DNA of 64,000 bases from a virus (lineage: Duplodnaviria > Heunggongvirae > Uroviricota > Caudoviricetes). The stretch lies in the IMG/VR virus record IMGVR_UViG_3300027819_000008, positions 27,405 through 91,404 of that record; one strand, written 5' to 3'. The position numbers and the translations under genes are program-made. Positions 1,748 through 61,592 of the stretch are shown in pieces (position 1 is the first letter of the stretch; each line of letters opens with the position of its first letter). The notes under the pieces were generated by a model that made no database searches, had not been told where the DNA came from, and saw only the letters and a list, made by a program, of their open reading frames with translations.

Positions 1748-3397
1748 CTATATCTTAGGCAACTCAGTCAGGCCAAACTTCCGGGCCACGTCGTTATATG
1801 AAAACAGGAGTCCCATGTGGGGACCAACCGAGAAGTCCACGCGGTAGGGCACGTCCGCCTCCAGGCGCCAGTCGAACGGCAGCGCCGTGCAGCGGCGGTA
1901 CACGAGCATGGCCGTCGGCTCCAGGTACCCAGGCGCACAGTCACCCCAGCCGGAGTCGTGCACGGTGTTGCTGTGCCAGGAGCGGAACGGCTTACCGCCG
2001 GGGCCGGAGCCCCCGTGCAGCCGCCAGCCCGCGGCCTCCGGAAACAGCAGCCCGCGCGCCTCCCACATCGGCGGCACCGCGAGCTGGACGTACTCCCCGT
2101 GGTGCAGCAGCGCGATCATCCACAGGCAGTCCGTGGCGTTCATGGACTGCGTCGGCGTGTTGGCCGCCTTGTGAAAGTTGTGGGACAGCGGTCCCCAGAG
2201 GCGCTTGTCACCGACCTGGAACTTGGGCTTCCCGTCCACGCGGCCCAGGTACCGCACGCCCTCCGGCAGGCCGACCCACCGGCGGCGGCCGTACCCGTCC
2301 TGGCAGTACCCGAGGCGCCCGAGGTGGTCCTGGTCCCACTCGTAGAGCTCCGCCAGCCCCGTGTAGCCGGCGTCGAACGCGGCGGCGAGGCGCTTGGCCT
2401 CGTCGTCCGGCAGCAGCATCCGCGCCTCGTTCCACAGCGTCCCCTGCAGCGCGCGCCACGAGCCCCCGAAGATCTTAAGGAAGAACGTCTGCTTGCCGAC
2501 GGTGTCGCGCTCGTGCGTCCCCTTCTTGTACGTCCCCTCCGGCACGCCGTAGAGGAGCGAGGCCGTCTTGCTGTGGATGTCCTTCCCCTCGCGCAGGTAC
2601 TCGTACGCGATCGGGTCCGGCCGGGCGCAGTACTTCCACGTCAGCATGGCCGCGCGGATGCACGCCTCGGCGCCGGAGATGTCCCAGCGCCACACGCTGC
2701 CGTGCTTCCGCGGGTCCCACACGGCGGCCAGCACGTCCAGCTGCTCCGCGCCCGTCTTCTTGGCCGCGACCGCGGCCTCCACGTCCGGCGTGAGGTGCAC
2801 GGCCCCCTCCCGGGGCACGATGCAGGACTTGATGCCCTGGGCGACCACCTTGTCCGCGCGCTCCGGGATGTTCTGCACCTGGGGGTCCTCGCACGACAGC
2901 CGGGAGGTGCGGAGCGCCCAGTTGTACTTCGTGTGGATCGCGCCGTCGGGGCGCAGTCGGTCGCGCCACGCGCGCAGCCACTTCGCGCGCCCACCCTGCA
3001 GCGACCGGATCTTCATGACGGCGTACACCACCGGGTGGTCGCCCGCGCGGGGGACCTTGATGGACGCGTAGTGCTGCAGGAACTCATCGGCGGTGGACGG
3101 CGTCTCCCCCGCGGCCAGCCGCTGCCCCGTGGGCTCCAGTCCCAGCCCCTGCGCGGAGTACAGGAACTTGGCCAGCGTGGCGGGGTGAATGGAGTCGGCC
3201 TCGGAGTACTTGAGGGTCATGCCGCGCTTCGCGGCCTCGCCCTCCACCAGGGCCTTGTGCGCGGCGAGCTCGGCCCCCCACGCGCGGTCCACCTCGGCCA
3301 GGCGCCGCTGGTCCAGGAACAGACCGGCCCGGCGCAGCTGGGACACCGCCGCATTCGCGGGCACCAGCACGTTGGCGTAATAGCTCCAGAGCTCCAT
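1748..3397 (-). CDS. polA: DNA polymerase I (family A) polymerase domain; C-terminal piece of a split polA
   Basis: Contains motif A region (RTSRLSCEDPQVQNIPER), motif B (RDTVGKQTFFLKIFGGS) and an AANTPTQSMNATD block like Pol I AINAPMQGTAAD. Start is ATG (MELWSYY) at 3397, one nt after the upstream stop (TAGCATG); the track ORF is over-extended to 3496. The N-terminus aligns with the Pol I segment that immediately follows Exo III. Confidence 0.85.
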   Translation of the reverse strand: MELWSYYANVLVPANAAVSQLRRAGLFLDQRRLAEVDRAWGAELAAHKALVEGEAAKRGMTLKYSEADSIHPATLAKFLYSAQGLGLEPTGQRLAAGETPSTADEFLQHYASIKVPRAGDHPVVYAVMKIRSLQGGRAKWLRAWRDRLRPDGAIHTKYNWALRTSRLSCEDPQVQNIPERADKVVAQGIKSCIVPREGAVHLTPDVEAAVAAKKTGAEQLDVLAAVWDPRKHGSVWRWDISGAEACIRAAMLTWKYCARPDPIAYEYLREGKDIHSKTASLLYGVPEGTYKKGTHERDTVGKQTFFLKIFGGSWRALQGTLWNEARMLLPDDEAKRLAAAFDAGYTGLAELYEWDQDHLGRLGYCQDGYGRRRWVGLPEGVRYLGRVDGKPKFQVGDKRLWGPLSHNFHKAANTPTQSMNATDCLWMIALLHHGEYVQLAVPPMWEARGLLFPEAAGWRLHGGSGPGGKPFRSWHSNTVHDSGWGDCAPGYLEPTAMLVYRRCTALPFDWRLEADVPYRVDFSVGPHMGLLFSYNDVARKFGLTELPKI

Positions 3398-3398
3398 G

Positions 3399-3653
3399 CT
3401 AGAAGAACGCCTGCTGCGCCGCGGCGGGCCGGTAGGTCGCGCCCGCCTCGGTGATCTGTCGCTCCAGCGCGGTGAAGTATTGCACGTTGACCTCATGGCA
3501 CTTGAGCGTGTCGGCCGCCACCTCGTTCAGCGTGTACCCCATCTTCTCCACGTACCGGTGAACAGCCGTCCGCTCCGCGGGCATGTGATCCCGCGCGTAC
3601 AGGTACGAGTAGAGCCGGCGCTTCAGGCCAAGCTCCCACCACCGGGACTCCAC
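3399..3653 (-). CDS. small helix-turn-helix-like protein encoded inside the polA-splitting insert
   Basis: C-terminal 60-80 aa look protein-like (YVEKMGYTLNEVAADTLKCHEVNVQYFTALERQI, HTH-like). Candidate GTG start at 3653 follows GGGGA; an alternative ATG lies at 3584. The upstream part of the track ORF 3399..4013 is W/R-rich frame junk. Confidence 0.3.
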   Translation of the reverse strand: MESRWWELGLKRRLYSYLYARDHMPAERTAVHRYVEKMGYTLNEVAADTLKCHEVNVQYFTALERQITEAGATYRPAAAQQAFF

Positions 3654-3852: not shown

Positions 3853-5103
3853 TCACAGGTACTCCGCCCGCCGCAGCCGGGCGTCCAGGGCCACCTCCAG
3901 CTCCAGCGTGGCGCAGGCGTCGTGCACCGCCCCACTAGCCACCTGCTCCAGGGGAAGGTCGCGCATCCGTCCCTTGTCCACCTCGGCCCAATACTGGCGC
4001 TTGCCCAGGACATCCACCACGGCCTTCTCCAGGCGCAGGCTCTCGTGCGTCCCGTCGCTGAGGGAGACGAGCGCGAGCATGGCGTCGCGCGTGCGGCGGA
4101 CGCGGTGTGCCCACCCGGGGACGACCAGCCCCTCCTCGTCGAAGTGCCCGTTGAACGCCGTCCGGTCGGCCGCAGAGGTGAAGGCCGGGGTCAGCAGCTC
4201 GCACACCCGCGCGCGGTGCGCGAGCAGCGGCGCGAGCTCCAGCCACGCCCCCTGCGTGAACGACCACGCGACCGCGACGCCGCGCAGGCGGAAGTCCGGG
4301 TGGCACGGGTCGGTGGAGACCTCCTTGCGGCTCGGGAACGCACCCCCGTCAAAGGACTCTATGTCGAAGGCCCACATCGCGCGGTGGCGAGTCAGGCGCT
4401 CGGCGAGCGCGCCCAGCTGGTCCAGCGTGGTGACCACCGTGACGCGCACCGCGGACTGGGGCTCCTGCCCGTGCAGGCGCTCGGCCATCCGCCGCATGTC
4501 GTCGGTGAACTGCGCCGTGAGTTCCGCGCGCCGCGCGGGGTCCGGCACCTGCTGGAGCGACCCGGGGTGTCGGTCCACGAACGCGTCCCGCCCGTCCGGC
4601 GTCCTGATCCACAGCCCGCGCACGCCGCCGAGTCGCTGCCGGGTGTTCCCTGTGACGTGGTGGAGCGGCGCGAGGCCGAGCACGAGCAGCGGGACCCCCG
4701 GGTCGTAGCGCGCGAGGTCGCGGGCCAGGTGGGCCGCGCAGCGCCGAGCCGACTCCTTCCACGCCTTACCCTCGAAGTCGTCCCCGGCCGGCCGGCACCG
4801 CGCGAGGTGCAGGTACGCGACGCGGTCCGGGTCCACGTTCGCGGCCTGGAGCGCCGGGCGCAGCACCCACTGGTCACCCTGCCCGCCCGGTGCGGTGGTC
4901 AGCACGATCAGCTGCGGGTCCTCACAGTGCACCGGGGGGACCTTGCGGTCCGGGGCGTCACTCGGGCACCCACTGCACGGGTTGCCGAGGTCCGCGGGTG
5001 TACGGGGAGTTTGTGGTGCTCCGGCAGTCCGCTGCCGCCGCTTTGGTGCGCGGGCGAAGGCCGGCCGGTCGAACTGAGAGAAGAAAGACGGCTGCTCCGT
5101 CAA
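3853..5103 (-). CDS. UDG-like domain fused to 3'-5' proofreading exonuclease (N-terminal piece of split PolA)
   Basis: Exo I (AFDIESFDGG), Exo II (FNGHFDEE) and Exo III (HDACATLE) motifs are present. The N-terminal half is Cys-rich and resembles family-4 UDG (as in SPO1 polymerase-associated UDG). TTG start at 5103. Ends with a TGA immediately followed by a hairpin-rich insert. Confidence 0.75.
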   Translation of the reverse strand: MTEQPSFFSQFDRPAFARAPKRRQRTAGAPQTPRTPADLGNPCSGCPSDAPDRKVPPVHCEDPQLIVLTTAPGGQGDQWVLRPALQAANVDPDRVAYLHLARCRPAGDDFEGKAWKESARRCAAHLARDLARYDPGVPLLVLGLAPLHHVTGNTRQRLGGVRGLWIRTPDGRDAFVDRHPGSLQQVPDPARRAELTAQFTDDMRRMAERLHGQEPQSAVRVTVVTTLDQLGALAERLTRHRAMWAFDIESFDGGAFPSRKEVSTDPCHPDFRLRGVAVAWSFTQGAWLELAPLLAHRARVCELLTPAFTSAADRTAFNGHFDEEGLVVPGWAHRVRRTRDAMLALVSLSDGTHESLRLEKAVVDVLGKRQYWAEVDKGRMRDLPLEQVASGAVHDACATLELEVALDARLRRAEYL

Positions 5104-7057: not shown

Positions 7058-8011
7058 TTAAAAAAAGGACTTCTGCGTTGCCCGGCGCGACCAAGGACGA
7101 TCCACCCAGCTCTTTTCCAGATCGAGAAAAAATAGAACATTAAGCTCGTCGCGCTTCACGTAGTCCGTGGCCAGCTGCTCCGGCGCGTACCCCTTCCCCT
7201 CCACGTACGCAAGGATCGCGGCCTGCTCGGCCGGGGCGTACGTCTTGAAGTGGGCCCCGTCCTCGCTCAGCTTCGGCGAACGGTCGGAGAAGGACACGTT
7301 GTGCACCTTCCCGCCGAGCGGCACGTAGCAGCCGCCGAAGTTGCCGACCTTGACCCACGACGTGCTATCGACCGAGAACCAGGGATACATCTGCATGAGC
7401 GCGATGCTCGTCAGCCCGAACCCGTGGAAGCGGCGGAGGGGCCGGCCCTCATCGTCGGTCAGCAGCTCCATGGAGCGGTCCAGGGACTTGATGCGGTCCG
7501 CGGACGTCAGCCCCGGAGCGGCCAGCCCGCCGAGCGCGAAGTACTCGGCGTGGTCCATGAGCTTCCGGAGCCACTTGAGGTCCTCGCCCCGGTGGTACGT
7601 GTGGATGAGCTGGACGCCGGACCCCCGCAGCTTCTTCTGGAGGTACGCGTAGTTCTCCCACCCGCGCTCCGCGGCGCGCTCCACCTCGGCCGCGGACGCC
7701 GGCTGCCCCGGCTTCCCCGGGATCACGTCCAGGTTGGCGACGACGGTGAACGCGTCCCGGTTCGCGAGGACGAAGTCCGCGTAGTCGTCCAGGTTGATCT
7801 CCGACCCCTTGGCCCAGGCCGTGAACGCCCCGGAGTCCAGGAACAGGTCCACTGCCGGCTTGCCCCCACCGCTCATGAACACCTCCGCCCACGGCAGCCG
7901 CGCCGGGGTCTCGCGCACGATCGCGTACGAGTGCAGGCGGCGCCGCGCCCCGACGCGGGCCACGTTGGCCTCGCGCGTGCGCTCCAGGCTCCCGGCCAGG
8001 TACACCCTCAT
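7058..8011 (-). CDS. dpdA: DpdA-like DNA 7-deazaguanine transglycosylase (TGT superfamily)
   Basis: LFLDSGAFTAW matches the TGT catalytic TDSGGFQ motif. No zinc-site cysteines, which is typical of DpdA. Co-located with the preQ0 biosynthesis genes. The start MRVYLAGS is duplicated in the Q repeats. Confidence 0.6.
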   Translation of the reverse strand: MRVYLAGSLERTREANVARVGARRRLHSYAIVRETPARLPWAEVFMSGGGKPAVDLFLDSGAFTAWAKGSEINLDDYADFVLANRDAFTVVANLDVIPGKPGQPASAAEVERAAERGWENYAYLQKKLRGSGVQLIHTYHRGEDLKWLRKLMDHAEYFALGGLAAPGLTSADRIKSLDRSMELLTDDEGRPLRRFHGFGLTSIALMQMYPWFSVDSTSWVKVGNFGGCYVPLGGKVHNVSFSDRSPKLSEDGAHFKTYAPAEQAAILAYVEGKGYAPEQLATDYVKRDELNVLFFLDLEKSWVDRPWSRRATQKSFF

Positions 8012-12215: not shown

Positions 12216-13499
12216 TCAGGCCGGCTTGACGTACTTGCTGGCGATCATCGTGTTGCGACCCTTGAACCGGCAGCCGTAGCGCACGCCGGGCCCGACGTTG
12301 CCGTAGTACCGGAACACCTTGCCCTTGTCCCCCTTGCGCAGCCACTCCGCGCGGCTGCCACCCAGGTACACGACCTCGGTCCCCTTCGGGATGAGCTTCT
12401 CGCCGGCGCGCGGGACGTACTTCCCGCTGTCGATGCGCTCGAACGCCGTCTTGGCCGCCCACTCCTTGCTGCCGCTGCGCTCGGCGGCCGGCTTCTTGGT
12501 GACCTTCGCCGTCTTGGCCGCGTCGGCCTTGGCCTTCTTCGCGGCCTTAGCGGCCTGCTTCTCCGCCTTGGCCTTCTTGTCGGCGTCCGCCTTGGCCTTC
12601 TTATCGGCCTTCACCTTCTCCGCCTTCGCGGCCTTGTCGGCCTTCACCTTCTCCGCCTTCGCGGCCTTGTCGGCCTTGGCCTTGGCCTCGTCGGTCTTGA
12701 CCTTCGTGCTGTCCGCGCCGTTCGCGTCGGCCGCTTCCGCCGCCATGCCCGGCTCCATCGGGAACATCTGGTCCACCGCTCCCATTCGCTCCATCGTCGT
12801 CTCTCCTTTGTTCGGGGTCAACTGCCTCTTATCCACTATATCGAGCGGAGCACCATGAGGGTCGTCACGGTCGAGCGCGGCGCGCACCTGCCCCTCCACG
12901 CGCGACCACGCCAGCCGCAGCCGGGAAATGGGGACCTCGAGCACCTGTGCGAGCACGTGCTCACGCACCGACGCGAACGTTTGCTTGCCGCGCCCGCGAT
13001 GGGTCCACTGCCGGCGGAGCTCCGCGAGGGTTCCCGCCGCGGGTTCCAGGAGCTCGTGCAGCAGCCGGCGCTCCACCTCGGGGAGCAGGCGCTCGGCCTC
13101 CTGCAGTGCGAACTGGACCATCATGGTCCGCAGGCCGTCCTCCCCCACGGTCTCAGCCATGGCCCGGGCGCCGTCACCCAGGGGTTCGTCCAGGCTGAGC
13201 ACGCGCACGCCCCCACCCCCGAACGCGCGGCTGCGCGTGTAGGCCGTGATGCACGCGCGCGAGACCGTGGCCGTCCCCATCCGGCCCAGGTCCTCCGCCG
13301 GCACGCGGTGCCGGTGGCGCCGCCAGTTGCGCCAGAGGTTAAGCAGGCCGTCCTGGATCAGGTCCTCCTGGGACAGGTACGGGTGGTGCGACCCCCGCGC
13401 GCTGGACCCCGTGACGCGCTTGACCCACGGCTTCATCTTGACCAGGTACTGCTCGAACGCGACCTCCTCGTCCCGCGTCGGTGCGAGCTGCGCGCTCAA
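12216..13499 (-). CDS. sigma-70-family-like protein with C-terminal Lys/Ala-rich histone-H1-like repeats and a small C-terminal domain
   Basis: Region-2-like segment (YLSQEDLIQDGLLNLWRNW). Followed by KAKADKAAKAEKVKADKAAKAEK... repeats, then about 85 aa with a globular-looking composition. TTG start at 13499 overlaps the upstream TGA (TTGA). Confidence 0.45.
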   Translation of the reverse strand: MSAQLAPTRDEEVAFEQYLVKMKPWVKRVTGSSARGSHHPYLSQEDLIQDGLLNLWRNWRRHRHRVPAEDLGRMGTATVSRACITAYTRSRAFGGGGVRVLSLDEPLGDGARAMAETVGEDGLRTMMVQFALQEAERLLPEVERRLLHELLEPAAGTLAELRRQWTHRGRGKQTFASVREHVLAQVLEVPISRLRLAWSRVEGQVRAALDRDDPHGAPLDIVDKRQLTPNKGETTMERMGAVDQMFPMEPGMAAEAADANGADSTKVKTDEAKAKADKAAKAEKVKADKAAKAEKVKADKKAKADADKKAKAEKQAAKAAKKAKADAAKTAKVTKKPAAERSGSKEWAAKTAFERIDSGKYVPRAGEKLIPKGTEVVYLGGSRAEWLRKGDKGKVFRYYGNVGPGVRYGCRFKGRNTMIASKYVKPA

Positions 13500-14248
13500 A
13501 GCTGGGCTCCCCCCTTGCCGGTGGCCAGCCCGCGCTTGGTCTTCTTGTCCTCGCTGGGCTTCTGGCTCCCGGCCGTTCGGCACTTCCCGCATCGCCACGC
13601 CTTGGACTTGGTGGGCACGGACGCCTCGTGCCCGCACTCCAGCTCACACCACTTGGATTTACCGCGATCCGTGATGACGCGCTTAACGCTTCGCAGCGGA
13701 CCGTACTTCTTGACCAGCGCGTCGTTGCGATCAGCCAGAGCCTTGGAATCTTTTGGTACCGGCGCGCGCGTGCGCTTGGGAACCGGGACTGAATCCGGCT
13801 CCGGGGCCTGCGGCTTGCTGACGGCCACGCGCCCCGACCCGAGGCACGCCGGACACTTCTCGCCGGGCGACTGCTCGCCGAGCCCGGCGCACTTGGTGCA
13901 CTCCGCGTCCACCGGCACCTGCACCGGCCTGTTCAGCCCAAGCATCTTGTCGATCATGGACTGGGGGCGCCACCCCTCGCGCTGTCCCAGCGCCAGGGCC
14001 GCGCACTCGGGGGAGCAGTAGTTCTGCGTCGTCCGGCCGGACAGGACGAGCTCGGGCACGAACGTGCGCGTGCACGCCGGGACCCCGAAGACCTCGCGCG
14101 CCCGCAGGCAGGACCGGCGCCGCAGCTGGTCCAGCGCGGCCTTCGCCTTGGCCACCCCCTTCTCGTCGCCCACCTTCGTGGACTCCTTCAGCTGTGTCTT
14201 GGCCTGCTTGACGACTTCGCGCTTCACCCGCGCCGCAATCTTGGCCAC
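13496..14248 (-). CDS. zinc-ribbon / DnaJ-type CxxCxGxG zinc-finger protein
   Basis: CTKCAGLGEQSPGEKCPACLGSG and CELECGH...CGKC motifs. Lys-rich N-terminus. Translationally coupled to the sigma-like gene. Confidence 0.4.
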   Translation of the reverse strand: MAKIAARVKREVVKQAKTQLKESTKVGDEKGVAKAKAALDQLRRRSCLRAREVFGVPACTRTFVPELVLSGRTTQNYCSPECAALALGQREGWRPQSMIDKMLGLNRPVQVPVDAECTKCAGLGEQSPGEKCPACLGSGRVAVSKPQAPEPDSVPVPKRTRAPVPKDSKALADRNDALVKKYGPLRSVKRVITDRGKSKWCELECGHEASVPTKSKAWRCGKCRTAGSQKPSEDKKTKRGLATGKGGAQL

Positions 14249-14650: not shown

Positions 14651-14940
14651 CGCCAAGCCTCCACGAGCCGACGGTCGTCGCGCCACGGCTCGAGATGCTT
14701 CTGGCACCGCATGAGCACGCCCTTGCGCTCGAGCGCCCGTACGGTGGCGAAGGACGTGGACCACCACGGGACGTCGTAGTTCCCGGAGTGGCGCCCCTGC
14801 ATCATCCGCATGGAGACGACCTCGGTGTCGGGTGTCGTCCAGAACCCCCCGCGCAGGCGCACGAGCACCCCGGTGTGCTCGCGCACGTAGTCCAGGACGC
14901 GCTGCTGCTCGGGACTCAGCTTCACCACGTTGTTGCCCAC
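14647..14940 (-). CDS. hypothetical protein
   Basis: GTG start with an AGGAGG Shine-Dalgarno site 6 nt upstream, immediately 3' of R-element 1. The MREPGPNP residues at the track N-terminus are an artefact of the conserved repeat. Confidence 0.35.
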   Translation of the reverse strand: MGNNVVKLSPEQQRVLDYVREHTGVLVRLRGGFWTTPDTEVVSMRMMQGRHSGNYDVPWWSTSFATVRALERKGVLMRCQKHLEPWRDDRRLVEAWR

Positions 14941-23220: not shown

Positions 23221-24504
23221 CTATCCCTTCACGCAGAGGACACCCTTGAGCACGTGCACCACGTCCACCAGGTCGGCCTGCGCGGCCATGACCGCGTCTA
23301 TGTCCTTGTAAGCTGCCGGCGTCTCGTCCAGCACCCCGGCATCCTTGCGGCACTCCACGCCGGCCGTCGCGGCCTCGTGGTCGGCCACCGTGAACTCCCG
23401 CTTGGCCCGGCCACGCGACATGCGGCGCCCGGCCCCGTGGCTGCACGACTGGAACGACTCGGGGTTCCCCCTGCCGCGCACGATGTACGACCGCGCGCCC
23501 ATGCTGCCGGGGATGATGCCGAGGTCGCCGAGGCCGGCGCGGACCGCGCCCTTGCGGGTCACCAGCACCCGCTCGCCGAAGTGGACCTCCTCGGCGACGT
23601 AATTGTGATGGCAGTTAACGACGACCTCGCACGCCCCGAGCCCCGACGCCCAGTAGGGCGCGCTGCCGCTGGGCGCGAAGGCGAACGTGTGCTTCTGGAC
23701 CGCGGCGAGGACGGCGCGCAGCATGACCTCCCGGTTGGTCGCGGCGTATCGCTGTGCCCACCCCACCGCCTCGACGTAGTCGTCGTACAGCGGCGTGCCC
23801 CGCGACAGCCACGACAGGTTCGGGTCGTGGCCCTGCGGGAGGCCGGCCGCGGCCTGTGGGAGCGTGGCGAACGCCATCTCCAGCGGGTGCGTCGCGACGT
23901 ACTCCTTGGCCTTGTCGATGAAGTACTGCCCGATGCCGTTGCCGACCCCGCGGCTGCCGCTGTGGAGCATGACCCACACGCGCTGCTCCTCGTCCAGGCA
24001 CACCTCGACGAAGTGGTTGCCCCCGCCGAGCGTCCCGAGCTGACAGAGTGGCGTCTGGCGCCGGCTCCTGACCGCCAGCGGGTGCTTCTGGTGAATCGCC
24101 GCGTAGCCGGCGGCTAGCGGATTCACACCGCCCGCCCACTCCCCGAACGGCGCGCGATCCTCCCGGTGGGCGCCGAACCCGACCGGCACGCCCCACTCTA
24201 TGTCCGCGCGCATGGTCTTCAGGCTCTCCGGCAGGTCGGACGCGGTCAGCGGCGTGCGCGCGGCAACCATGCCGCACCCGATGTCCACCCCGACCGCGGC
24301 CGGCACGATTGCCCCCACGGTCGCGACCACCGACCCGATCGTTGCGCCCATGCCCCAGTGCACGTCCGGCATCACCGCGAGGTGGCGAAAGATGAACGGC
24401 AGGGCCGCCGTGTTCCGCAACTGGTTCAGCGCCTCGTGCTCGACCTCGACGCCGTCGGTCCACATCTTGATCGGCGCGCGCCCCTTTTCCACGATCTCCC
24501 TCAT
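23221..24504 (-). CDS. rtcB: RtcB RNA 3'-phosphate/2',3'-cyclic phosphate-5'-OH ligase
   Basis: MPDVHWGMGATIGSV, GCGM, GGGNHFVEV, HSGSRGVG, NCHHNY, GSMG and SCSHGAGR motifs. ATG at 24504 overlaps the upstream TGA. Confidence 0.9.
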   Translation of the reverse strand: MREIVEKGRAPIKMWTDGVEVEHEALNQLRNTAALPFIFRHLAVMPDVHWGMGATIGSVVATVGAIVPAAVGVDIGCGMVAARTPLTASDLPESLKTMRADIEWGVPVGFGAHREDRAPFGEWAGGVNPLAAGYAAIHQKHPLAVRSRRQTPLCQLGTLGGGNHFVEVCLDEEQRVWVMLHSGSRGVGNGIGQYFIDKAKEYVATHPLEMAFATLPQAAAGLPQGHDPNLSWLSRGTPLYDDYVEAVGWAQRYAATNREVMLRAVLAAVQKHTFAFAPSGSAPYWASGLGACEVVVNCHHNYVAEEVHFGERVLVTRKGAVRAGLGDLGIIPGSMGARSYIVRGRGNPESFQSCSHGAGRRMSRGRAKREFTVADHEAATAGVECRKDAGVLDETPAAYKDIDAVMAAQADLVDVVHVLKGVLCVKG

Positions 24505-24932
24505 TCCGGGACTCCGCGTAGCATCCGCTCCACGAGCGAGCGCGCCCTGAGGATGTTGGCCGAGTCGTTCCACAGGCGGCTGCGGCCGGACGGGTGCGGC
24601 AGCATCACCGCCTGAAAGTCCGGGTCCACGCTCACGACCGCGAACGGTTGAAACGACTTGGGTAAGAATGCGTCGGCCACCTTGGCCCCGAGGAGGATCA
24701 GCGGCCGCGGGGTCCGGCGCAGGATCTTGGACGCAGCCTCACGCGCCTGGCGCGTCGACCACGCGCCGAGGCAGAGGTTCACCCGGTCGAACGCGCGCAG
24801 GTACTCGCGCTGCCCCATGTCGAGGATCAGGTGGCAGAGCCGGTGGCCGGCGCAGCCGGGCGGGTCGGGCCACAGCGCGTACTGTGGGTCCGGCCCATAG
24901 GGATTGACCTCGCCGACGAGGAGCGGCCTCAC
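24501..24932 (-). CDS. UDG-superfamily-like protein
   Basis: VGEVNPYG (GExPG-like motif A) and LPHPSGRSRLWN (HPS-like motif B). GTG start overlaps the stop of the 56-aa gene. Confidence 0.4.
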   Translation of the reverse strand: MRPLLVGEVNPYGPDPQYALWPDPPGCAGHRLCHLILDMGQREYLRAFDRVNLCLGAWSTRQAREAASKILRRTPRPLILLGAKVADAFLPKSFQPFAVVSVDPDFQAVMLPHPSGRSRLWNDSANILRARSLVERMLRGVPE

Positions 24933-26461: not shown

Positions 26462-26791
26462 CTACGAAACCTCCACGCCATGCGCGGCGCAGTAAGGATC
26501 GTACGCGCCAGCGCAGGCGCACCGGGACCGCTTCGGCGACCGCCGACGCGCGTAGTAGAGCATCTGCCCGGCCCACACGGTGTTCGCCAGCGTGATGGAG
26601 ATCCCACCGAGGAAGCTGAGCCACTGACCGAGGTGGGGGTAGTACGCGAGGTGCCAGAAACCCCACGCCATGAAGAACGCGGTCGGCCCGACCCGAACGC
26701 CGCGCACCTGCTTGTCCCGGTACAGCGCGACGACGTTGGTCCAGATCATGACCGACCCGACGAATTCAAACAGGCTGTTGATCAGGTCCAC
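26462..26791 (-). CDS. small membrane protein
   Basis: Hydrophobic helices; aromatic-rich, non-junk composition. Confidence 0.4.
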   Translation of the reverse strand: MDLINSLFEFVGSVMIWTNVVALYRDKQVRGVRVGPTAFFMAWGFWHLAYYPHLGQWLSFLGGISITLANTVWAGQMLYYARRRSPKRSRCACAGAYDPYCAAHGVEVS

Positions 26792-26795
26792 GTGT

Positions 26796-27512
26796 TTACA
26801 GTCGCCTCCTCAGCGACGGGCCGCTCACCTGCACCAGGCGGAAGTGCGCGGGGTCCAGCAGCCGGTCCGCGCAGCGCTCCCCGAACCGCTGGGGAAACGC
26901 GCTCACCGGTGCGTTCACGGTCACGATCAGGTGGCGGCCGAGCTCCGGCCACCGCAGCAGCCTCAGCACGACGGCCTCCTTCCAGTCCCCGGCCGCGTCC
27001 ACGTCCAGGTCATCCACGGCCAGGGCTACCACGCGCTCGCGCAGCTCGTTGAGCAGCTCGACCTCCACGTCAGCCTCCCCGCCGCGGACCCTCCACGCCG
27101 TGCGCAGCCGGTCGCGCAGGTCGGCCCACGTCTCGAACCACACGGGGGCCGGCCGGCGGCGGAGGCGCCCGGAGGTCACCTCGGCCTCATACCCCGGCGA
27201 GGTGACGACGTTCCACAGCCCGCGGTCCCCGTGACCCCGGCAGGCCATGACGCGCACGGCGCACGCCGCGAGCCCACTCTTGCCGAGGCCGGTCGATCCC
27301 TGCAGCACCAGACCCCGGGGACCGGAGCTCAGCGGACTCCTCACCGCATCAGCCCACTCCTGTACGGCGTCCCGCACTCTGGCCGCGCCGGGGAACCCGT
27401 CGAACCGGTACGCGCGCATGGCCTCCGGCAGGTTGGTCGCGGCCACCCGCGCCTGCCGCGTGTTGTGCGCGAGGGTCAGGGACTCGAGGTCATCCAGCTG
27501 GTGGTCCGTCAT
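26796..27512 (-). CDS. DnaC/IstB-like AAA+ helicase loader
   Basis: Walker A LQGSTGLGKSGLA and Walker B LAVDDLDVD. ATGA overlap with the initiator gene. Confidence 0.65.
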   Translation of the reverse strand: MTDHQLDDLESLTLAHNTRQARVAATNLPEAMRAYRFDGFPGAARVRDAVQEWADAVRSPLSSGPRGLVLQGSTGLGKSGLAACAVRVMACRGHGDRGLWNVVTSPGYEAEVTSGRLRRRPAPVWFETWADLRDRLRTAWRVRGGEADVEVELLNELRERVVALAVDDLDVDAAGDWKEAVVLRLLRWPELGRHLIVTVNAPVSAFPQRFGERCADRLLDPAHFRLVQVSGPSLRRRL

Positions 27513-28354
27513 TCGGCCTCCTGGCGCCGCAGCATCTCGTCCACGCCCTCCTGCCAGTCCACCATGTCCTTGCCCGTGCGGTAAACGAGGTGGTTCGGCG
27601 CATCACCCGCGGACCGCGCAGCGGCTAGGTGGGCCGGAAACTTCAGGCCCCACATCCACAGCAGGTCCTTGAGTCCAGAGAAGCGCTGACCGGCGTCCCA
27701 CTGACTTCTCGCGTAGTCGGCCACGGCCAGGAGGTCATCGGGCGTGTACCCCTCCGCCAGGCGCTTGCGCATGAGGCCGAGAACCTTTGGTCCGTACGGC
27801 TCCGCAGTGGAGTTCGTGACTGAGAAGTTGATCCCCATCCGGCGCCGGGCTCGTTCCATCAGCGACACCTCCTCGTGGCGCTGCAAACTTCCGCGGGCCG
27901 TAGTCCCCGAAGGGGACTTACCATTTTCAGTAGACCCAACTATATATTTACTATATGCACTTGGAGAAACACGCCGCCCTCGTGGCGCGGGAATTAAGTC
28001 TTCATGGTTTTCCCAGCCGGTACCTGAAGACTTAGTTCCACCGTCCCCTCGTAGGCCGGGAACTAAGTCGTCGGACGTAGAAACACCCCCACGAGGGGAA
28101 CCGGGAACTAAGTCTTCTCGTGGAATTAAGTCTTCATGCCGGCCCGGACCCAGCCACGACTGCACCGGCAGGAGGGCCCACAGGCCGCGTAGCCTTGGCG
28201 CGATCAGCTTCAGGTCGGTCAATTCCCGACGGGCCGCGGTCACGTAGCGCGAGCCGAGTCCAGTGGCCTCCACCAGCTGCCCCAGCGTGCAGGGAAACGA
28301 GCCGTCTGGTTCCACGGTGACCCGACCGCGCAGCAGCCGCATGGCCCAGTACAC
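27509..28354 (-). CDS. replication initiator / replisome organizer (lambda O-like architecture; origin inside the gene)
   Basis: N-terminal winged HTH (FPCTLGQLVEATGLGSRYVTAARRELTDL). Internal peptide repeats (EDLIP/EDLVPG) are encoded by the iterons. C-terminal domain YTPDDLLAVADYARSQW. Confidence 0.55.
   Translation of the reverse strand: MYWAMRLLRGRVTVEPDGSFPCTLGQLVEATGLGSRYVTAARRELTDLKLIAPRLRGLWALLPVQSWLGPGRHEDLIPREDLVPGSPRGGVSTSDDLVPGLRGDGGTKSSGTGWENHEDLIPAPRGRRVSPSAYSKYIVGSTENGKSPSGTTARGSLQRHEEVSLMERARRRMGINFSVTNSTAEPYGPKVLGLMRKRLAEGYTPDDLLAVADYARSQWDAGQRFSGLKDLLWMWGLKFPAHLAAARSAGDAPNHLVYRTGKDMVDWQEGVDEMLRRQEAE
27921..28135. promoter_or_regulatory. putative origin of replication: palindrome + AT-rich unwinding element + 4 direct and 1 inverted 14-bp iterons (GGAAYTAAGTCKTC)
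   Basis: Palindrome GTCCCCGAAGGGGAC at 27903-27917, outside this interval. AT-rich tract ccattttcagtagacccaactatatatttactatatgcac. Direct iterons at 27989, 28058, 28103 and 28122; inverted copy at 28027. Confidence 0.55.
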
Positions 28355-28391
28355 CCGCAGCCCGCGGTCGCTGATGGTCTGCAGGAGGGAC

Positions 28392-31103
28392 CTACTGCGG
28401 GCCAGGGACGGCTCCGACCAGGGCGTGACCCTGCTCGCGGTACAGGCGCACGCGCTCCAGGGTGTGGAGCGCGAGGTGGTCCTTGTCCGGTCGGTCGGTC
28501 GGGGCGCCCCCGTCGGCGAAGTCGTACACGTCCACGGTGGTCTTGTCCGCGCGCGGGCGCAGCGCCCGGCCCAGGGCCTGCAGCGTGTCCACCTCGGACT
28601 TCCCCCCGGCCGCGTTCACGAACGCATCTATCTCCGGCAGGTCCACCCCCTCGCGGAAGAACGGGGTCGCGATGAGGAGCGCCCCGGTCGTAGCAGCCCG
28701 GAACGCCCCGAGCACGGCCTCGGCCCGCCCGGTCCCGACGTCGTCCCGGTCCAGCTGCCAGCACGGGTACTGCCGGGACACCGCGGACCACCAGTCGTGC
28801 AGGGCGCGGGCGTGCTCCACGATGCGGCACAGGACGAGGACCCGGTGGCCCTGCTTGGCGTGGTGCATCGCGATGCGCAGCACCCGCGCGTTCCGCTCCC
28901 GGTTGGTGGTGATCCCCCGCTCGTAGAAGGTGCCGTACAGCTGACTCCCCATCGTCTGCAGCCGGCGCGGGTCCCTCTTCCAGTCCGGGAGCACGATCTC
29001 GCGGACGTCCTCGTAGGACGGGTAACTCGAGGCCGGCGGACGCACGAAGCGGATGGTCGCGCGCGCCAGGTAGCCCTGCTGCGTCAGCGCGGTCGTGTCC
29101 GTCAGCACCACGATCGGGCCAAGCGCCCCCTCCATGTGCAGAGCGCGGACGGGGTCCTTGATGTTGACCGCGGTGCCCGACAGCCCGAGGCGGGTGCGCG
29201 CGCCGACGCACGCCTTGGCCACCGCGAGCCACGTCGCCGCGCTCGCGTGGTGGCAGTTATGTACTATGAGTCCCAAGCCTACGATGTAGGTGTGGGCGCG
29301 CTCGACTTCAAGGTTGTAGACGTAACCGTCTGGACACACGCCTCCAAATGTTCCATCACGTCCCGGTTCGAGAACCTCAACACTGTCCACCCGGCGCCTT
29401 TCAGGAAGTCTTCTTTCCGCTTGTCCCGGGCCCGTACCATCCGCGATCCGTGGCTCCCGCCGTCCACTTCTATCGCGATCTTCTCGGCTTTGTTCGCCAC
29501 ATCCACCTTGTAATGACTGGGGAGCCCCCTGAAAGCCGGACGCCGCCCCGTAGACACGACGACTTCCACTGGCCAACCTAATGCGTTGGCAAGTGCTTGC
29601 TGGGCAGCGGGGATCGGTTTCCCGTTGCCCCCTTGCGTCCGCGGCTTGTGGCCCATTGCTCGCAAGGTGGAGGAAACTTTCGCCCGCGACGTTGGGGACC
29701 TCATTGGGTTGTGCACCCGCATTCGTTGGGAGGCGCAACGTCGGTTCGTCGCGGCCATCGTTCTTGACGAGAGCTGTGCACACCACAGGCGCCGACACCG
29801 CTCGCTGCAATAGGCGCGTCTCACTGAGCGCCAAAGGTGCCGGGTTCCCTTGGTTGTGACTTTGGTCAACTCGCCACACCACGTGCACGTTACTTGAATC
29901 TCCGTCGGCCCCCACAGGCGGCGAGCCAGAGCCTTGAATTTCGCTGAAGCTTCCAGCTTGGCCTGCGTTGTTCGACACGTCGCGGAGCAGTATGCACGGG
30001 CCGATCTTCTGTAAAGCTTTCTCGCTACAGGTGTTTCCACCCGCGTTGCTTTCTGACATGTCGTGCACGGAACTTCTAATGGTACTGTCATGGTGCGTCC
30101 AGCATAACACAACGGACCCGGCGCAAAGTTTACCCGCAGCTACCCAGCCAGTTTCCGTCAAGATTGGGTGGTTCGGAGTGCAGACTATCTTTTCCCCGGA
30201 GACTGTGAGTCGTACCAAGCTTAAAGCGCGACTCCGCATGGTGTGAGTAACTTTGGCCATGACGTAACTGTCCTGGTACCACGCGGGGACAACGTCCCCC
30301 ACCTGAATAGATGAGATGGGTACATTGCCAACCATGGTGGACCCTGGAAAGCACTCGTCCTCTATCAGCATGTCGAAGTCCCGGAAGTACGGCGCGGTCA
30401 CCGAGTTCTTCAGCGAGGCCGTGAGCCCGACGGTGACCTCCCCCAGCTGGAACTCCCCGTCCCCGACCACGCCGAGGGTGACGGTCGGGAGGGACTCGCG
30501 CAGCTGGTCCAGCGTCTGCCGGAGCAGCGCCTGCGTCGGGACCACCCACAGCACGCACCCGCCGTGCTGGCGGGCCATCTCCACCCCGATCTTGGTCTTG
30601 CCGCCGCCGGTCGGGCACTGCAGGATCAGGCGGGGGACCGGCAGCGTCCGGAAGAGCTGGAAGGCCTGCAGCTGGTACGGGCGCCACTCTATGGTGGTGG
30701 GTGGTGCGAGTGGGAGTCGCTGCTGCGCGGTCTCCCGGGGCTCCACGAGGGCCACCCGGTACTTGTGCTCCTGCAGCACGCGCTGGACGCGCGCGAGGAG
30801 GCCGGTCTCAAACGAGTTGCCGGGTCGGCGCAGGAACTTGGTGCTGCCGTCCCAGCCAAACTTGGAGGCCCGGCTGTACTTGGCCTTCGGGTTCTTGACG
30901 GACAGTGCGGTGCTGACGAGCTCCACGGCCTCGTCGGGCCCGGTCAGGACCGAGCGCACGACGCCGACCCGGATCGTGCAGTCCGCGGTGTCCACGTCCC
31001 CTATATCCTGCGAGGTGGGTTGTATGGCGCGCACCGAACGCGCTACCATAGGGACCTCACCGTGCCTCTGGGTTAGCTGCAGCGCCCCGGGTCCGGCGGC
31101 CAC
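28392..31103 (-). CDS. SF2 DECH-box DNA helicase (ResIII/XPB-like) interrupted by an intein
   Basis: Walker A ILQCPTGGGKT. Motif II DE|CH is split by the intein (LIEDE + intein + CHHAS). Motif VI is QALGRALRP. GTG at 31103; an alternative ATG lies at 31049. Confidence 0.8.
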   Translation of the reverse strand: MAAGPGALQLTQRHGEVPMVARSVRAIQPTSQDIGDVDTADCTIRVGVVRSVLTGPDEAVELVSTALSVKNPKAKYSRASKFGWDGSTKFLRRPGNSFETGLLARVQRVLQEHKYRVALVEPRETAQQRLPLAPPTTIEWRPYQLQAFQLFRTLPVPRLILQCPTGGGKTKIGVEMARQHGGCVLWVVPTQALLRQTLDQLRESLPTVTLGVVGDGEFQLGEVTVGLTASLKNSVTAPYFRDFDMLIEDECFPGSTMVGNVPISSIQVGDVVPAWYQDSYVMAKVTHTMRSRALSLVRLTVSGEKIVCTPNHPILTETGWVAAGKLCAGSVVLCWTHHDSTIRSSVHDMSESNAGGNTCSEKALQKIGPCILLRDVSNNAGQAGSFSEIQGSGSPPVGADGDSSNVHVVWRVDQSHNQGNPAPLALSETRLLQRAVSAPVVCTALVKNDGRDEPTLRLPTNAGAQPNEVPNVAGESFLHLASNGPQAADARGQRETDPRCPASTCQRIRLASGSRRVYGAASGFQGAPQSLQGGCGEQSREDRDRSGRREPRIADGTGPGQAERRLPERRRVDSVEVLEPGRDGTFGGVCPDGYVYNLEVERAHTYIVGLGLIVHNCHHASAATWLAVAKACVGARTRLGLSGTAVNIKDPVRALHMEGALGPIVVLTDTTALTQQGYLARATIRFVRPPASSYPSYEDVREIVLPDWKRDPRRLQTMGSQLYGTFYERGITTNRERNARVLRIAMHHAKQGHRVLVLCRIVEHARALHDWWSAVSRQYPCWQLDRDDVGTGRAEAVLGAFRAATTGALLIATPFFREGVDLPEIDAFVNAAGGKSEVDTLQALGRALRPRADKTTVDVYDFADGGAPTDRPDKDHLALHTLERVRLYREQGHALVGAVPGPQ
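29256..30353 (-). mobile_element. intein (366 aa) in helicase motif II
   Basis: Block A CFPGSTMV, block B GEKIVCTPNHPILT, block F VYNLEVERAHTY, block G IVGLGLIVHN followed by extein Cys. The central ~250 in-frame aa are low-complexity. The surrounding region has lower GC. Confidence 0.75.
29279..30112 (-). CDS. DUF559/Vsr-like (PD-(D/E)xK) endonuclease with two zinc ribbons, nested in the +1 frame inside the intein
   Basis: Two CxxC...YCSxxC repeats. C-terminal region HYKVDVANKAEKIAIEVDGGSHGSRMVRARDKRKEDFLKGAGWTVLRFSNRDV matches the DUF559 core. The frame differs from the intein frame. Confidence 0.65.
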   Translation of the reverse strand: MCYAGRTMTVPLEVPCTTCQKATRVETPVARKLYRRSARAYCSATCRTTQAKLEASAKFKALARRLWGPTEIQVTCTWCGELTKVTTKGTRHLWRSVRRAYCSERCRRLWCAQLSSRTMAATNRRCASQRMRVHNPMRSPTSRAKVSSTLRAMGHKPRTQGGNGKPIPAAQQALANALGWPVEVVVSTGRRPAFRGLPSHYKVDVANKAEKIAIEVDGGSHGSRMVRARDKRKEDFLKGAGWTVLRFSNRDVMEHLEACVQTVTSTTLKSSAPTPTS

Positions 31104-59312: not shown

Positions 59313-61256
59313 TCAGCTCTCCGTCGTGGGTCCACGCCCCACCCCCAGCGTGCGGCGCGCCGCCTCCCTCGACCGCCTCGTCACCGCCTTGCTAAACCGC
59401 CCGGCGTCGTCGCGCGGGTGCTCCGACTCGTCAAACTCCTTGGCCTCCGCCACCAGCCGAATGACCACCGGGATGCTGCCGTCGGCCGGCATGAAGAGGA
59501 CCTCGCCCACCTGGGCCTCGGCGTCGAAGAACGCCAGGTCCCCGTCCAGCTCGGGGCAGCAGCCCGGCCGCACGTACGCGAGCGTCAGGTGGGGGACGTA
59601 CGCGGGCTGGGTGTCCTCGTGGGGCAGCGCGCCGAGCGCGTCGTGCAGGGCCACCAGGTCGTCGGACTGCACGCTGGCGTAGAGCACGTCCGCGTCGGGC
59701 TGCCGGAAGCGCCGGACGTCCCCGAGCTTGAGGTGGACCGGCCCGCGGCCGCGCAGCAGCGGGGCGACCCGCTCCGCGGTGACCCCCGGGTCCAGGCCGT
59801 AGCGCACGGTCACGTGCGGGTGCAGCTCCCGGCCGCCCTCGGCCAGGTCCCCGTCGGCCACGCGGTCCCGGGCCCACGCGAGCGCGGCCTCGGCGAGGTG
59901 CTCCGGCAGCTCGACCTGGGTGCTCGCGTACTCGTGCGGTGCGCCCTTGATCAGGCTCTCGGCGCGGGTCCAGTCGGCCTCACTCTGCTCCAAATGCTTT
60001 CTGGGCTTGGCCCCCACCGACTCGCGATAGTCCAGGACCCACGCCGGCGCAAACTTGAAGCCCGCCCGCTTCCAGAAGCGCACCCGGTGATTGCCGTCCA
60101 GCACGGTCAGCCGCGACTTGCCGTCGCGCCCCTGGGAAACTACCCGGGGCGACCGGTCCTCGGCGTCCGGGCGCCCCCAGTCAGTCTTGGGCGCCTCTCC
60201 GGGCTCCATCGGGCGCCACGTCCCGACACGATCCTCCGGGCCTTCCCCACCGCCACCGGACTCATCACCACCTCCGCCCCCGCCCGAACCGAAGCGCCCG
60301 TCCTCGTCTCTCGGGGGGTCCTCCTCGTTCCACTCGCCCTTAGTCCAGCCCGGCACGACCGCCCGGCGCTCCACCTTCTGGAAGCGCAGGACGACCGCAC
60401 ATCTGCAGCCGGGATGCGCCGGTGGGCGGAAGTAGGCCTCGCCATTCGGGTGCTCAAACGGTGCGTCCAGGGAGGTCTCAGCTTCGTCCAAACTTTCACA
60501 AATCTTTATGTCCACGCGATCGTCCTGCGCGGTACTCCAGACGCGCGTGGTCTCTTCGCGGTCCAGCAGGCCCTCGTTCGCGGCGGCCTGCCACAGGGCC
60601 TCCTGCCCCGCGGAGCTTGCATTTATAGTCTCGGTTCTCGCGATGTTCATGGCGCGGTAGTCCAGCAGTGCGTCGGCGTACTTCGCGACGCGGCGCTCGA
60701 CCCTGGCCGCGGACTCCCCACCCTCGACCAGCCGCGCGCGGAACTTGGCGACGGCCTCGATCTGCCGGGAGTGCAGGCCGACCACCCGCCGGATCTCCTC
60801 GGCCAGGTCGGTCGGCGCGATCCCCTGCTCCTGCGAGCGCAGGACCAAGGCGCGCACGCCGGCGCGGGTGGAGTCGGTCAGCTCTGTCACGAGCTCCGCC
60901 CCGTGCTCGCGCACCCACGCGATGCTCAGCGGGTTCTTGAGGTCGAAGCCGAGCGGTCCCTCCTCCACCCCGATGAGCTCCGCCCCGAGCGACACACCCA
61001 GCGCGAAAGTCCGGCCGAGCAGGGGGTCCAGCAGGCGCTTGACGGTGTCCGGCAGTACGCGGTCCAGCAGCGCGGCCACCTCCACCTGGGACAGGGAGCC
61101 CGAGCGCAGGGCCTCGGCCAGCGCCCCGACGTCCACCTGTGAGGCCGTGGAGCGCGCGGCGCGCCGAAAGGCGCGGGCGACGTGGGGCTCCATGCGCGCG
61201 GCAAGCCGTGTCATCAGCGGGTCGCGGTCCGAGGGCGCCTTGTACCGGGACCCCAT
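59313..61256 (-). CDS. MuF/SPP1-gp7-like minor head protein fused to a ParB/Srx-like domain and a 2H (LigT-like) phosphoesterase domain
   Basis: MuF block NIARTETINASSAGQE...PPAHPGCRCAV. Then LTVLDGNHRVRFWKRAG (the ParB/sulfiredoxin DGxHR motif). The C-terminus has two His-x-Thr-x motifs (HPHVTV and PHLTLAY). The start is uncertain: track 61463, likely ATG near 61256. Confidence 0.65.
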   Translation of the reverse strand: MGSRYKAPSDRDPLMTRLAARMEPHVARAFRRAARSTASQVDVGALAEALRSGSLSQVEVAALLDRVLPDTVKRLLDPLLGRTFALGVSLGAELIGVEEGPLGFDLKNPLSIAWVREHGAELVTELTDSTRAGVRALVLRSQEQGIAPTDLAEEIRRVVGLHSRQIEAVAKFRARLVEGGESAARVERRVAKYADALLDYRAMNIARTETINASSAGQEALWQAAANEGLLDREETTRVWSTAQDDRVDIKICESLDEAETSLDAPFEHPNGEAYFRPPAHPGCRCAVVLRFQKVERRAVVPGWTKGEWNEEDPPRDEDGRFGSGGGGGGDESGGGGEGPEDRVGTWRPMEPGEAPKTDWGRPDAEDRSPRVVSQGRDGKSRLTVLDGNHRVRFWKRAGFKFAPAWVLDYRESVGAKPRKHLEQSEADWTRAESLIKGAPHEYASTQVELPEHLAEAALAWARDRVADGDLAEGGRELHPHVTVRYGLDPGVTAERVAPLLRGRGPVHLKLGDVRRFRQPDADVLYASVQSDDLVALHDALGALPHEDTQPAYVPHLTLAYVRPGCCPELDGDLAFFDAEAQVGEVLFMPADGSIPVVIRLVAEAKEFDESEHPRDDAGRFSKAVTRRSREAARRTLGVGRGPTTES

Positions 61257-61592
61257 CACGACACCACCCGGCGCGCGTGGGGGGCCGGTGGCGGCAGGAG
61301 GCGACGCTCGCGCTCCACCTTCTCCGCGTAGCTGTCGGCGGCCGGGCGCTTGACCAGCTTCCCGGTGCGCTCGTCCACCTTCCAGGACCCCCGGTGGGCC
61401 TGCGGGTGCACGTCCATCAGCTACACAGCAGGTCGCGCCACTCGGCGCGGGTCTGCCCCTCATAGCGCTGGCGGGAGAAGAACTCCACGCACTGATCGAG
61501 GTTTTCCTGGGAGTACTCGTGATCGCACATTAGCCGCGGCTCCGCCGGCAGCGCGGGGTCTATGACCAGGTAGAAGAACAAGCAGAACAGGC

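Follow-up and report, generated by a model that had tools for sequence, protein, structure and literature searches.

A probable replication origin embedded in the initiator gene of an uncultured high-GC phage

Origin-like elements within a translated linker

We analyzed a 64,000-nucleotide (nt) stretch of IMG/VR record IMGVR_UViG_3300027819_000008 (hereafter the window; GC content about 70%), centering on a minus-strand open reading frame (ORF) with the features of a replication initiator gene and on the repeats, AT-rich tract and palindrome that lie inside it. From its anatomy, homology and conservation, we infer that this region is most probably a phage replication origin of the lambda O/SPP1 G38P replisome-organizer class, embedded in the DNA that encodes the linker of the initiator. 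An earlier sequence-only reading had placed the elements inside the initiator coding sequence, and all of them indeed fell at 27902–28135, within the minus-strand ORF at 27509–28354. The locus was composed of the following DNA features, given in gene orientation.

27509–28354, minus strand: replication initiator (replisome organizer) gene, 281 amino acids (aa), one continuous ORF
28122–28135, plus strand: iteron GGAATTAAGTCTTC, exact match, first in gene orientation
28104–28117, plus strand: iteron GGAACTAAGTCTTC, exact match
28059–28072, plus strand: iteron GGAACTAAGTCGTC, exact match
28026–28039, minus strand: inverted iteron GGAACTAAGTCTTC, exact match on the minus strand, encoding GTKSS
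27990–28003, plus strand: iteron GGAATTAAGTCTTC, exact match, adjoining the AT tract
27965–28117, no strand assigned: extended repeat units of about 39–45 nt (iteron plus CCTCGTGG/CCACGAGG and AGAAACAC flank), with direct copies at 27965, 28034 and 28079 and an inverted pair
27919–27969, no strand assigned: AT-rich tract, presumed DNA-unwinding element (DUE), with GCATATAG / TATATAG; least stable 50-mer
27902–27918, no strand assigned: perfect palindrome AGTCCCCGAAGGGGACT, 17 nt, with a 7-bp stem and a 3-nt loop, flanking the AT tract toward the C-domain

The four direct copies and one inverted copy of a 14-bp iteron that had been read from the sequence were all exact matches to GGAAYTAAGTCKTC (27990, 28059, 28104 and 28122 on the plus strand, 28026 on the minus strand), and together they spanned codons 73–122 of the initiator ORF (27990–28135). 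When up to two mismatches were allowed, only one further match was found in the 64 kb, at 14770; the shuffle expectation at this stringency was 0.31 matches per window, and none of 100 shuffles reached six. The window repeats were 14–16 bp long and asymmetric, with no internal dyad, and the direct iterons had start-to-start spacings of 69, 45 and 18 nt, all multiples of 3. A repeat scan found no second cluster of at least three short-range repeats of non-coding type in the window.

The 40-nt tract quoted earlier as AT-rich corresponded to 27921–27960, and this region contained the lowest-GC 40-mer of the window, at 27.5% compared to a mean of 70%. Taken as a 50-mer, 27919–27969 had a duplex stability of −58.7 kcal/mol compared to a mean of −82.5 kcal/mol (z = 5.3), the lowest of the 64 kb, and the AT region was the least stable duplex of the window at 30-, 50- and 100-bp scales (z about 5). 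The palindrome was also recovered, with GTCCCCGAAGGGGAC located at 27903–27917. Its interpretation as an intrinsic terminator was ruled out, given that it lacks a T-run, and the single terminator-like match in a scan of 27400–28500 was at 28086–28099, among the iterons and away from the palindrome. A search of Rfam returned a chance-level match only (20 bits, compared to a threshold of 70 bits).

We built an AlphaFold2 model of the initiator with 43 sequences (mean predicted local distance difference test score, pLDDT, 77.8), in which the DNA elements coincided with a low-pLDDT linker between a winged-helix domain and a helical C-terminal domain:

28157–28354, minus strand: N-terminal winged helix-turn-helix domain, aa 1–66, presumed iteron binder; pLDDT 93–96, H-E-H-H-E-E topology
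27887–28156, minus strand: disordered interdomain linker, aa 67–156, carrying the origin DNA; pLDDT below 50 for aa 86–147
27512–27886, minus strand: C-terminal helical domain, aa 157–281, presumed loader/helicase contact; pLDDT 82–98 except for one short loop

The linker-coding region is translated, and its sequence is not shaped by codon preference. The initiator frame had no stop codons in 27870–28150, compared to four to seven in each of four other frames; the sole other open frame was the antisense frame that shares the wobble position. Given that the N-terminal domain has no stop codon of its own, ribosomes must read through the linker. The GC content at third codon positions (GC3) was 0.8–0.9 in codons 1–70 and 146–281, but 0.15–0.5 in codons 72–145, which correspond to the repeat and AT region. 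Rare codons accounted for 32 of the 76 codons in the linker compared to 18 of the 205 codons elsewhere in the gene, and TTA codons for four of the 76 compared to eight of 16,216 codons in 59 other genes, an enrichment that we calculate to be approximately 100-fold (Poisson probability near 1e-7). A tRNA scan found none, so the phage has no tRNA-Leu(UAA) to pair with these TTA codons. The sequence-only reading had the iterons translated as (E/D)DL(I/V)P, which holds for the direct copies; the inverted copy reads GTKSS and is therefore not a protein-level repeat. Differences from copy to copy were non-synonymous (E/D, I/V). Together, the collapse in GC3, the rare and TTA codons, the inverted copy and the amino-acid-changing variable positions argue that the DNA, and not the peptide, is what is constrained here.

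Public gene calls truncate the initiator. For the window, the call in the public record is limited to 116 aa at the C-terminal end, probably because the collapse in codon bias defeats gene finders. In records of homologous contigs, the calls likewise keep only the C-terminal 88–123 aa (L003, 5086–6001; L005, 1011–1709; L019, 1121–1654), leaving the winged-helix domain and the origin-bearing linker uncalled despite a continuous ORF. A two-gene model, with a small winged-helix gene followed by a gene for the C-terminal domain, was rejected because the N-domain frame has no stop and the ORFs of L003 and L005 are continuous. An internal translation start at M166 was rejected as well, since the ATG is not conserved and is replaced by Leu in L005 and L001.

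These observations also bear on the possibility that the repeats are operators and the AT tract an internal promoter, with the winged-helix protein controlling transcription of the sequence for the C-terminal part together with that of the loader and helicase genes, and possibly with a separate protein made from M166. Such an arrangement would account for TATAGT-type hexamers in the AT tract, for a GAGGAGG sequence resembling a Shine-Dalgarno site a few bases upstream of the M166 ATG, and for public gene calls that start at or near M166, and winged-helix proteins are often repressors. However, a promoter scan of 27400–28500 found no sigma-70-type promoter, GAGGAGG is explained by the conserved RHEE codons, and the gene calls are explained by the codon-bias collapse. 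The non-conserved ATG and the need for translation to pass the linker also argue against it, as do the protein family and the gene order, which are those of replication organizers. We consider this explanation unlikely, although a promoter as a part of the origin is possible.

Initiator family and layout in diverged relatives

Relatives of the initiator were found by one search only, an exhaustive phmmer search that yielded 51 homologs, all via the C-terminal domain. This domain was 55–79% identical to that of the homologs P0001–P0004, and distant homologs (220–290 aa) had an N-terminal helix-turn-helix and the same two-domain architecture as the window initiator. A word-indexed protein search with the initiator and a tblastn search of the C-terminal domain against the phage collection gave no matches, and a DNA search of 26500–29000 against 50,697 phage records was also without a match. 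Thus, the phage lineage has neither a DNA nor an initiator-protein match in the searched phage collection. Back-translated scans of viral and genome contigs with the single initiator protein found nothing, and scans with an alignment of close relatives found one distant match in a Clostridia metagenome-assembled genome and nothing in IMG/VR.

Profile comparisons connected the family to known replisome organizers. The family profile aligned to SPP1 G38P with an hhalign probability of 84% (E = 7e-6) across both domains, while the alignment to lambda O had a probability of 20% and covered the N-terminal region only. Pfam HTH_36 (PF13730) was matched by 12 of 42 family members, and PF09524 was matched weakly by three of 42 homologs; on the window protein, PF09524 had an E-value of 0.0055 and 17.2 bits, under the 27-bit cutoff. 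Based on these profiles, the C-terminal domain is probably a distant relative of Phg_2220_C. Foldseek matches of the N-terminal domain were winged-helix structures that included the RepA_N plasmid initiators 4pql, 4pt7 and 5kbj, with weak E-values (0.2–0.6).

The genes that follow the initiator had been described as DnaC-like and DnaB-like, and both were found downstream on the minus strand:

26796–27512, minus strand: DnaC/IstB-like AAA+ helicase loader, PHROG 50 and 3277 (E about 1e-9; best 1.5e-9), with a start that overlaps the initiator stop codon
25102–26607, minus strand: DnaB-family replicative helicase, Pfam DnaB_C (4.5e-12), PHROG 19 (5e-40), TIGR03600 phage_DnaB

The loader also had weak matches to NCBIfam IstB and PRK08116. 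The gene order of superfamily 2 (SF2) helicase, initiator, AAA+ loader and DnaB was complete in three relatives (L003, L007 and L016) and partial on shorter contigs.

We compared the linker region across the groundwater and other metagenome contigs that carry the closest homologs. Four relatives kept the order of the window, namely winged-helix coding sequence, repeats, AT tract, perfect hairpin and C-terminal domain:

L005: four CACGTCGTAGCGAGG(A/T)CGCT repeats; AT motif GCATATACAG; hairpin GAGGGAGC TAAA GCTCCCTC
L003/L004: three 57-nt repeats; AT minimum; hairpin AAGGCT TAAA AGCCTT within the AT minimum
L002: two GTACCTAGCRRTCCCGAGTTAGGTAC repeats; AT motif ACATATATATATG; hairpin AGGCATCCGT AGA ACGGATGCCT
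L001: repeats AGATTATCTTACC / AAGTAATCTTACC; AT motif CCATATATAGG; hairpin AGAGCCCC TTC GGGGCTCT

The layout was thus conserved while the sequence turned over. Two to four repeat copies occupied the equivalent place in the relatives (in L001 as judged by eye), homogeneous within each genome and different between genomes, and the hairpins, with stems of 6–10 bp and loops of 3–4 nt, differed in sequence from that of the window. In L001, L002 and L005 the hairpin came just past the AT tract, in L003 at the AT minimum, and the C-terminal domain began near an RHEE motif in the window and all four relatives. In L005, the closest relative, the N- and C-terminal domains were 70% identical to the window protein, compared to 24% for the linker. 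Repeat spacings were 45, 66 and 69 nt in L005, 45 nt in L002, and 96 and 138 nt for the long repeat of L003 (72, 96 and 138 nt for a shorter one); by our arithmetic, the chance that the nine spacings counted over the window, L002, L005 and the long repeat of L003 would all be in frame is approximately (1/3)^9. A CATATA-type motif was common to the window, L001, L002 and L005 in three different reading frames, indicating that it was conserved as DNA. The initiator ORF was continuous in the window, L003 and L005; what looks like a split in L001 is most readily attributed to a 1-nt error, given that this contig had 2x coverage and that its second frame carries on with the conserved GxWxxLP motif.

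Two relatives had a second palindrome, composed of G and C with few exceptions, directly after the first hairpin (L005, 1563–1582, GCGCGCGG GGGA CCGCGCGC; L002, 223–240, CGCGCGC GGAC GCGCGCG), at a place where the window has only CCGCGG. Several more distant linkers also contained AT-rich DNA. In those of L015, L016 and L017, the AT minimum included TTTTATA or TCTTATA and was flanked by direct repeats in L015 and by 12- to 19-nt inverted repeats in L016 and L017, and L006 had an AT tract in its linker. Judging from these sequences, an origin within the linker may be common across the initiator family. A pattern of paired iterons had zero matches in viral contigs, and four matches in metagenome contigs (L011–L014) were rejected as relatives, being unrelated low-GC tandem repeats with no related protein. 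These contigs, with 37–46% GC, carried tandem copies of the same 14-mer, such as GAGTGGAATTAAGTCTTC twice beside AT-rich DNA in L013, probably by coincidence or possibly as unrelated iterons.

The comparison with relatives also addresses whether the repeats might be a neutral in-frame minisatellite, or a peptide motif repeated in a disordered linker, with no function of the DNA. The linker is disordered and fast-evolving, its repeats are in frame, and peptides resembling ED..P recur in the window and L005, all of which would be expected of such repeats. However, the peptide encoded by the inverted copy is unrelated to the others, and the codons found in the copies are the rarest in the genome. 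Moreover, repeats, AT minimum and perfect hairpin occurred in a fixed order in five lineages, CATATA was kept in three reading frames, and repeats that are homogeneous within genomes differ between them. Neutral repetition is thus an improbable explanation.

Repeat arrays beside AT tracts are also known at packaging (pac) and partition (par) sites. The region could in principle be another cis-acting site of this kind, involved in packaging, partition or recombination, bound by a phage protein and lying in the gene by chance, and the comparable repeat arrays of pac and par sites would suit this explanation. We consider it very improbable, because in all relatives the elements occupy a fixed place inside the initiator gene beside the genes for loader and helicase, more than 20 kb separates the site from the head and packaging genes, and the homologous sites of SPP1 and lambda are proven origins (PMC5737612, PMC7466680).

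Proposed initiation and comparison with SPP1 and lambda

If the region acts as an origin, the N-terminal winged-helix domain would bind the five 14-bp iterons and form a nucleoprotein complex. This complex, together with supercoiling, would melt the adjacent AT tract, whose instability was calculated above. The helical C-terminal domain would then recruit the phage AAA+ loader and DnaB-type helicase onto the opened strands, as expected from homology with SPP1 G38P–G39P–G40P and lambda O–P–DnaB. More speculatively, the perfect palindrome flanking the AT tract might extrude as a hairpin that bounds or marks the bubble. Translation of this DNA yields a disordered linker that evolves fast, which accounts for the in-frame repeats and for the tolerance of very rare codons.

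Judged by profile comparison, the closest homologous system is SPP1 G38P/oriL rather than lambda O–P. G38P belongs to pfam09524, oriL consists of AB boxes and an AT-rich DUE embedded in gene 38, and a 356-bp oriL fragment suffices for replication (PMC5737612). A two-domain initiator and an origin inside the initiator gene are common to SPP1 (PMC5737612) and the window, as is the order of initiator, loader and DnaB-type helicase (genes 38, 39 and 40 in SPP1), the phage supplying its own helicase in both cases. When gene 38 of SPP1 was examined, the sequence separating the two domain-aligned regions contained short repeats and AT-rich DNA; as in the window, its relatives and lambda, the AT-rich element directly adjoins the repeats on the side of the C-terminal domain. 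These repeats and the hhalign alignment would place oriL in the interdomain linker. The two systems also differ in several respects. SPP1 gave no direct sequence match to the window initiator (tblastn against phages), the PF09524 match was sub-threshold, and the window loader is an AAA+ protein of DnaC/IstB type, whereas G39P is annotated as a 126-aa helicase loader. Iterons differ in sequence and number, a perfect palindrome flanks the AT tract of the window, and the genome has 70% GC. A second iteron cluster comparable to oriR was not seen in the 64 kb.

Lambda O was assigned HTH_36 and Phg_2220_C by HHpred (PMC5509034), and lambdoid phages have their origin halfway along O (PMC7466680, PMC3349717). 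Using the same tools on the lambda O gene, we found four iterons, then an AT tract, then a palindrome, GTCAGAGAATTC/GAATCCTCTGAC. The window has the same succession in gene orientation as lambda (PMC3349717, PMC7466680), with iterons followed by approximately 40 bp of AT-rich DNA and a palindrome, as well as a probable origin in the middle of the initiator gene and a loader gene directly after it. Its iteron number would vary in frame, adding residues to the protein, as in Shiga toxin (Stx) phages (PMC7466680). In contrast, the window initiator had no match to Pfam Phage_rep_O and its hhalign alignment to lambda O was weak. Lambda iterons are 18–19 bp long, with an internal dyad and a spacing of 20–24 bp, whereas those of the window are 14–16 bp and asymmetric, spaced at 18–69 bp, with one inverted. 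Furthermore, lambda P recruits the host DnaB, while the window phage encodes DnaB, a loader, primase, polymerase, a clamp-like factor and a single-stranded DNA-binding protein (SSB). The sequence-only reading had called this the classic ori-lambda arrangement; the order of iterons, AT tract and palindrome agrees, with the palindrome after the AT tract, but the initiator family, the iteron type and the loader type do not.

Plasmid replicons offer a more distant comparison. Asymmetric direct repeats beside an AT-rich unwinding element, presumably bound in the window by a winged-helix N-terminal domain, are shared with iteron plasmids that have winged-helix Rep initiators, such as the RepA_N family of staphylococcal plasmids. 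In the iteron-plasmid replicons covered by one review, iterons have been described as part of the origin sequence (PMC4980987); in the window, however, they lie inside the initiator coding region, and the C-terminal domain is probably of the phage Phg_2220_C type.

Several observations weigh against an origin of this class. The Phg_2220_C match of the window protein was sub-threshold and HTH_36 was unmatched (Pfam, E < 0.01), the iterons have no internal dyad of the lambda kind, and at 18–69 bp apart they are not helically phased. A distant homolog, L007, had a short linker without repeats or AT tract, showing that not every family member has the arrangement. The −10-like TATAGT inside the AT tract makes a promoter role possible. 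Finally, GC skew had been suggested as a check of the origin, but the cumulative skew was monotonic, with no inflection at 28 kb, a result that carries no information here, given that virtually all genes share one strand.

We propose, tentatively and with considerable doubt, a joint reading in which the hairpin is an integral, structure-specific part of the origin and initiators of the HTH_36–Phg_2220_C type carry the origin in their own linker as a family-wide rule. The idea of a structure-specific hairpin comes from its place, which is kept in diverged relatives and has an equivalent in lambda, while its sequence is not conserved; once extruded, it could be a loading or priming mark for the phage DnaB–loader complex or for primase. 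If the family-wide rule were true, the DNA-binding domain and its binding sites would be inherited and exchanged as one module.

The locus is a well-supported new example of the known lambda/SPP1 layout with the origin in the initiator, from an uncultured high-GC phage. It offers a precise, testable candidate origin and an initiator/loader/helicase module for an uncultured lineage of approximately 70-kb high-GC phages, and would extend the design of lambda and SPP1, with the origin inside the initiator linker, to a very distant clade. The signature at 70% GC, in which GC3 collapses, TTA codons come in a run and duplex stability is the lowest of the genome, could be used for automatic origin finding. 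Given that public calls truncate these initiators where the origin destroys the codon signal, many family members are probably mis-annotated.

Genomic setting and further observations

The likely genes were almost all on the minus strand of the window, with head, connector, tape-measure and tail genes at approximately 34–64 kb. After these structural genes followed a T5 A1-like protein and then the replication block, which contained the SF2 helicase with an intein, the initiator ORF, the DnaC-like loader, the DnaB-like helicase, a uracil-DNA glycosylase (UDG)-like protein, RtcB, a DnaG-like primase, a second helicase, a DpdA-like transglycosylase, a clamp-like factor, DNA polymerase pieces and SSB. 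The phage is not lambdoid but a phage of approximately 70 kb with its own replication proteins, and an identical loader protein was present on a 70,150-bp metagenome contig (GCA_900218215.1).

The SF2 helicase (28392–31103, minus strand, with 29279–30112 on the same strand inside it) had its intein at motif II (DE|C ... HN|C). In the intein part, the GC3 of the helicase frame was 0.42–0.72, compared to 0.9–1.0 in the exteins. There, the +1 frame held an ORF for a DUF559/Vsr-like endonuclease (Pfam E = 6e-13) whose GC3 was higher, and no stop interrupted the helicase frame. A homing endonuclease may be overprinted inside the intein.

Elsewhere in the replication block, 7058–8011 (minus strand) encoded a DpdA-like homolog of queuine tRNA-ribosyltransferase (PHROG 887, E = 1e-47), which hints at modification of the phage DNA with a 7-deazaguanine. 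DNA polymerase similarity was split between 3853–5103 and 1748–3496 (both minus strand), approximately 360 nt apart and matching phrog_17 profile positions 628–829 and 836–1240, respectively; the gene could be split or carry an insertion, or the two ORFs could be separate subunits. An RtcB RNA ligase was encoded at full length at 23221–24573 (minus strand; Pfam E = 2e-117), and the head-morphogenesis protein at 59313–61463 had a weak RNA-ligase-like match at its C-terminal end.

Two pairs of direct repeats, 23–30 nt long and approximately 130 nt apart (7986–8015/8116–8145 and 5219–5241/5348–5370), were located at or just upstream of gene starts and may be repeated promoter or regulatory motifs. 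A long periodic array of 9- to 57-nt repeats was found at 12495–12698 (minus strand), inside a 473-aa ORF (12216–13637) with no PHROG match.

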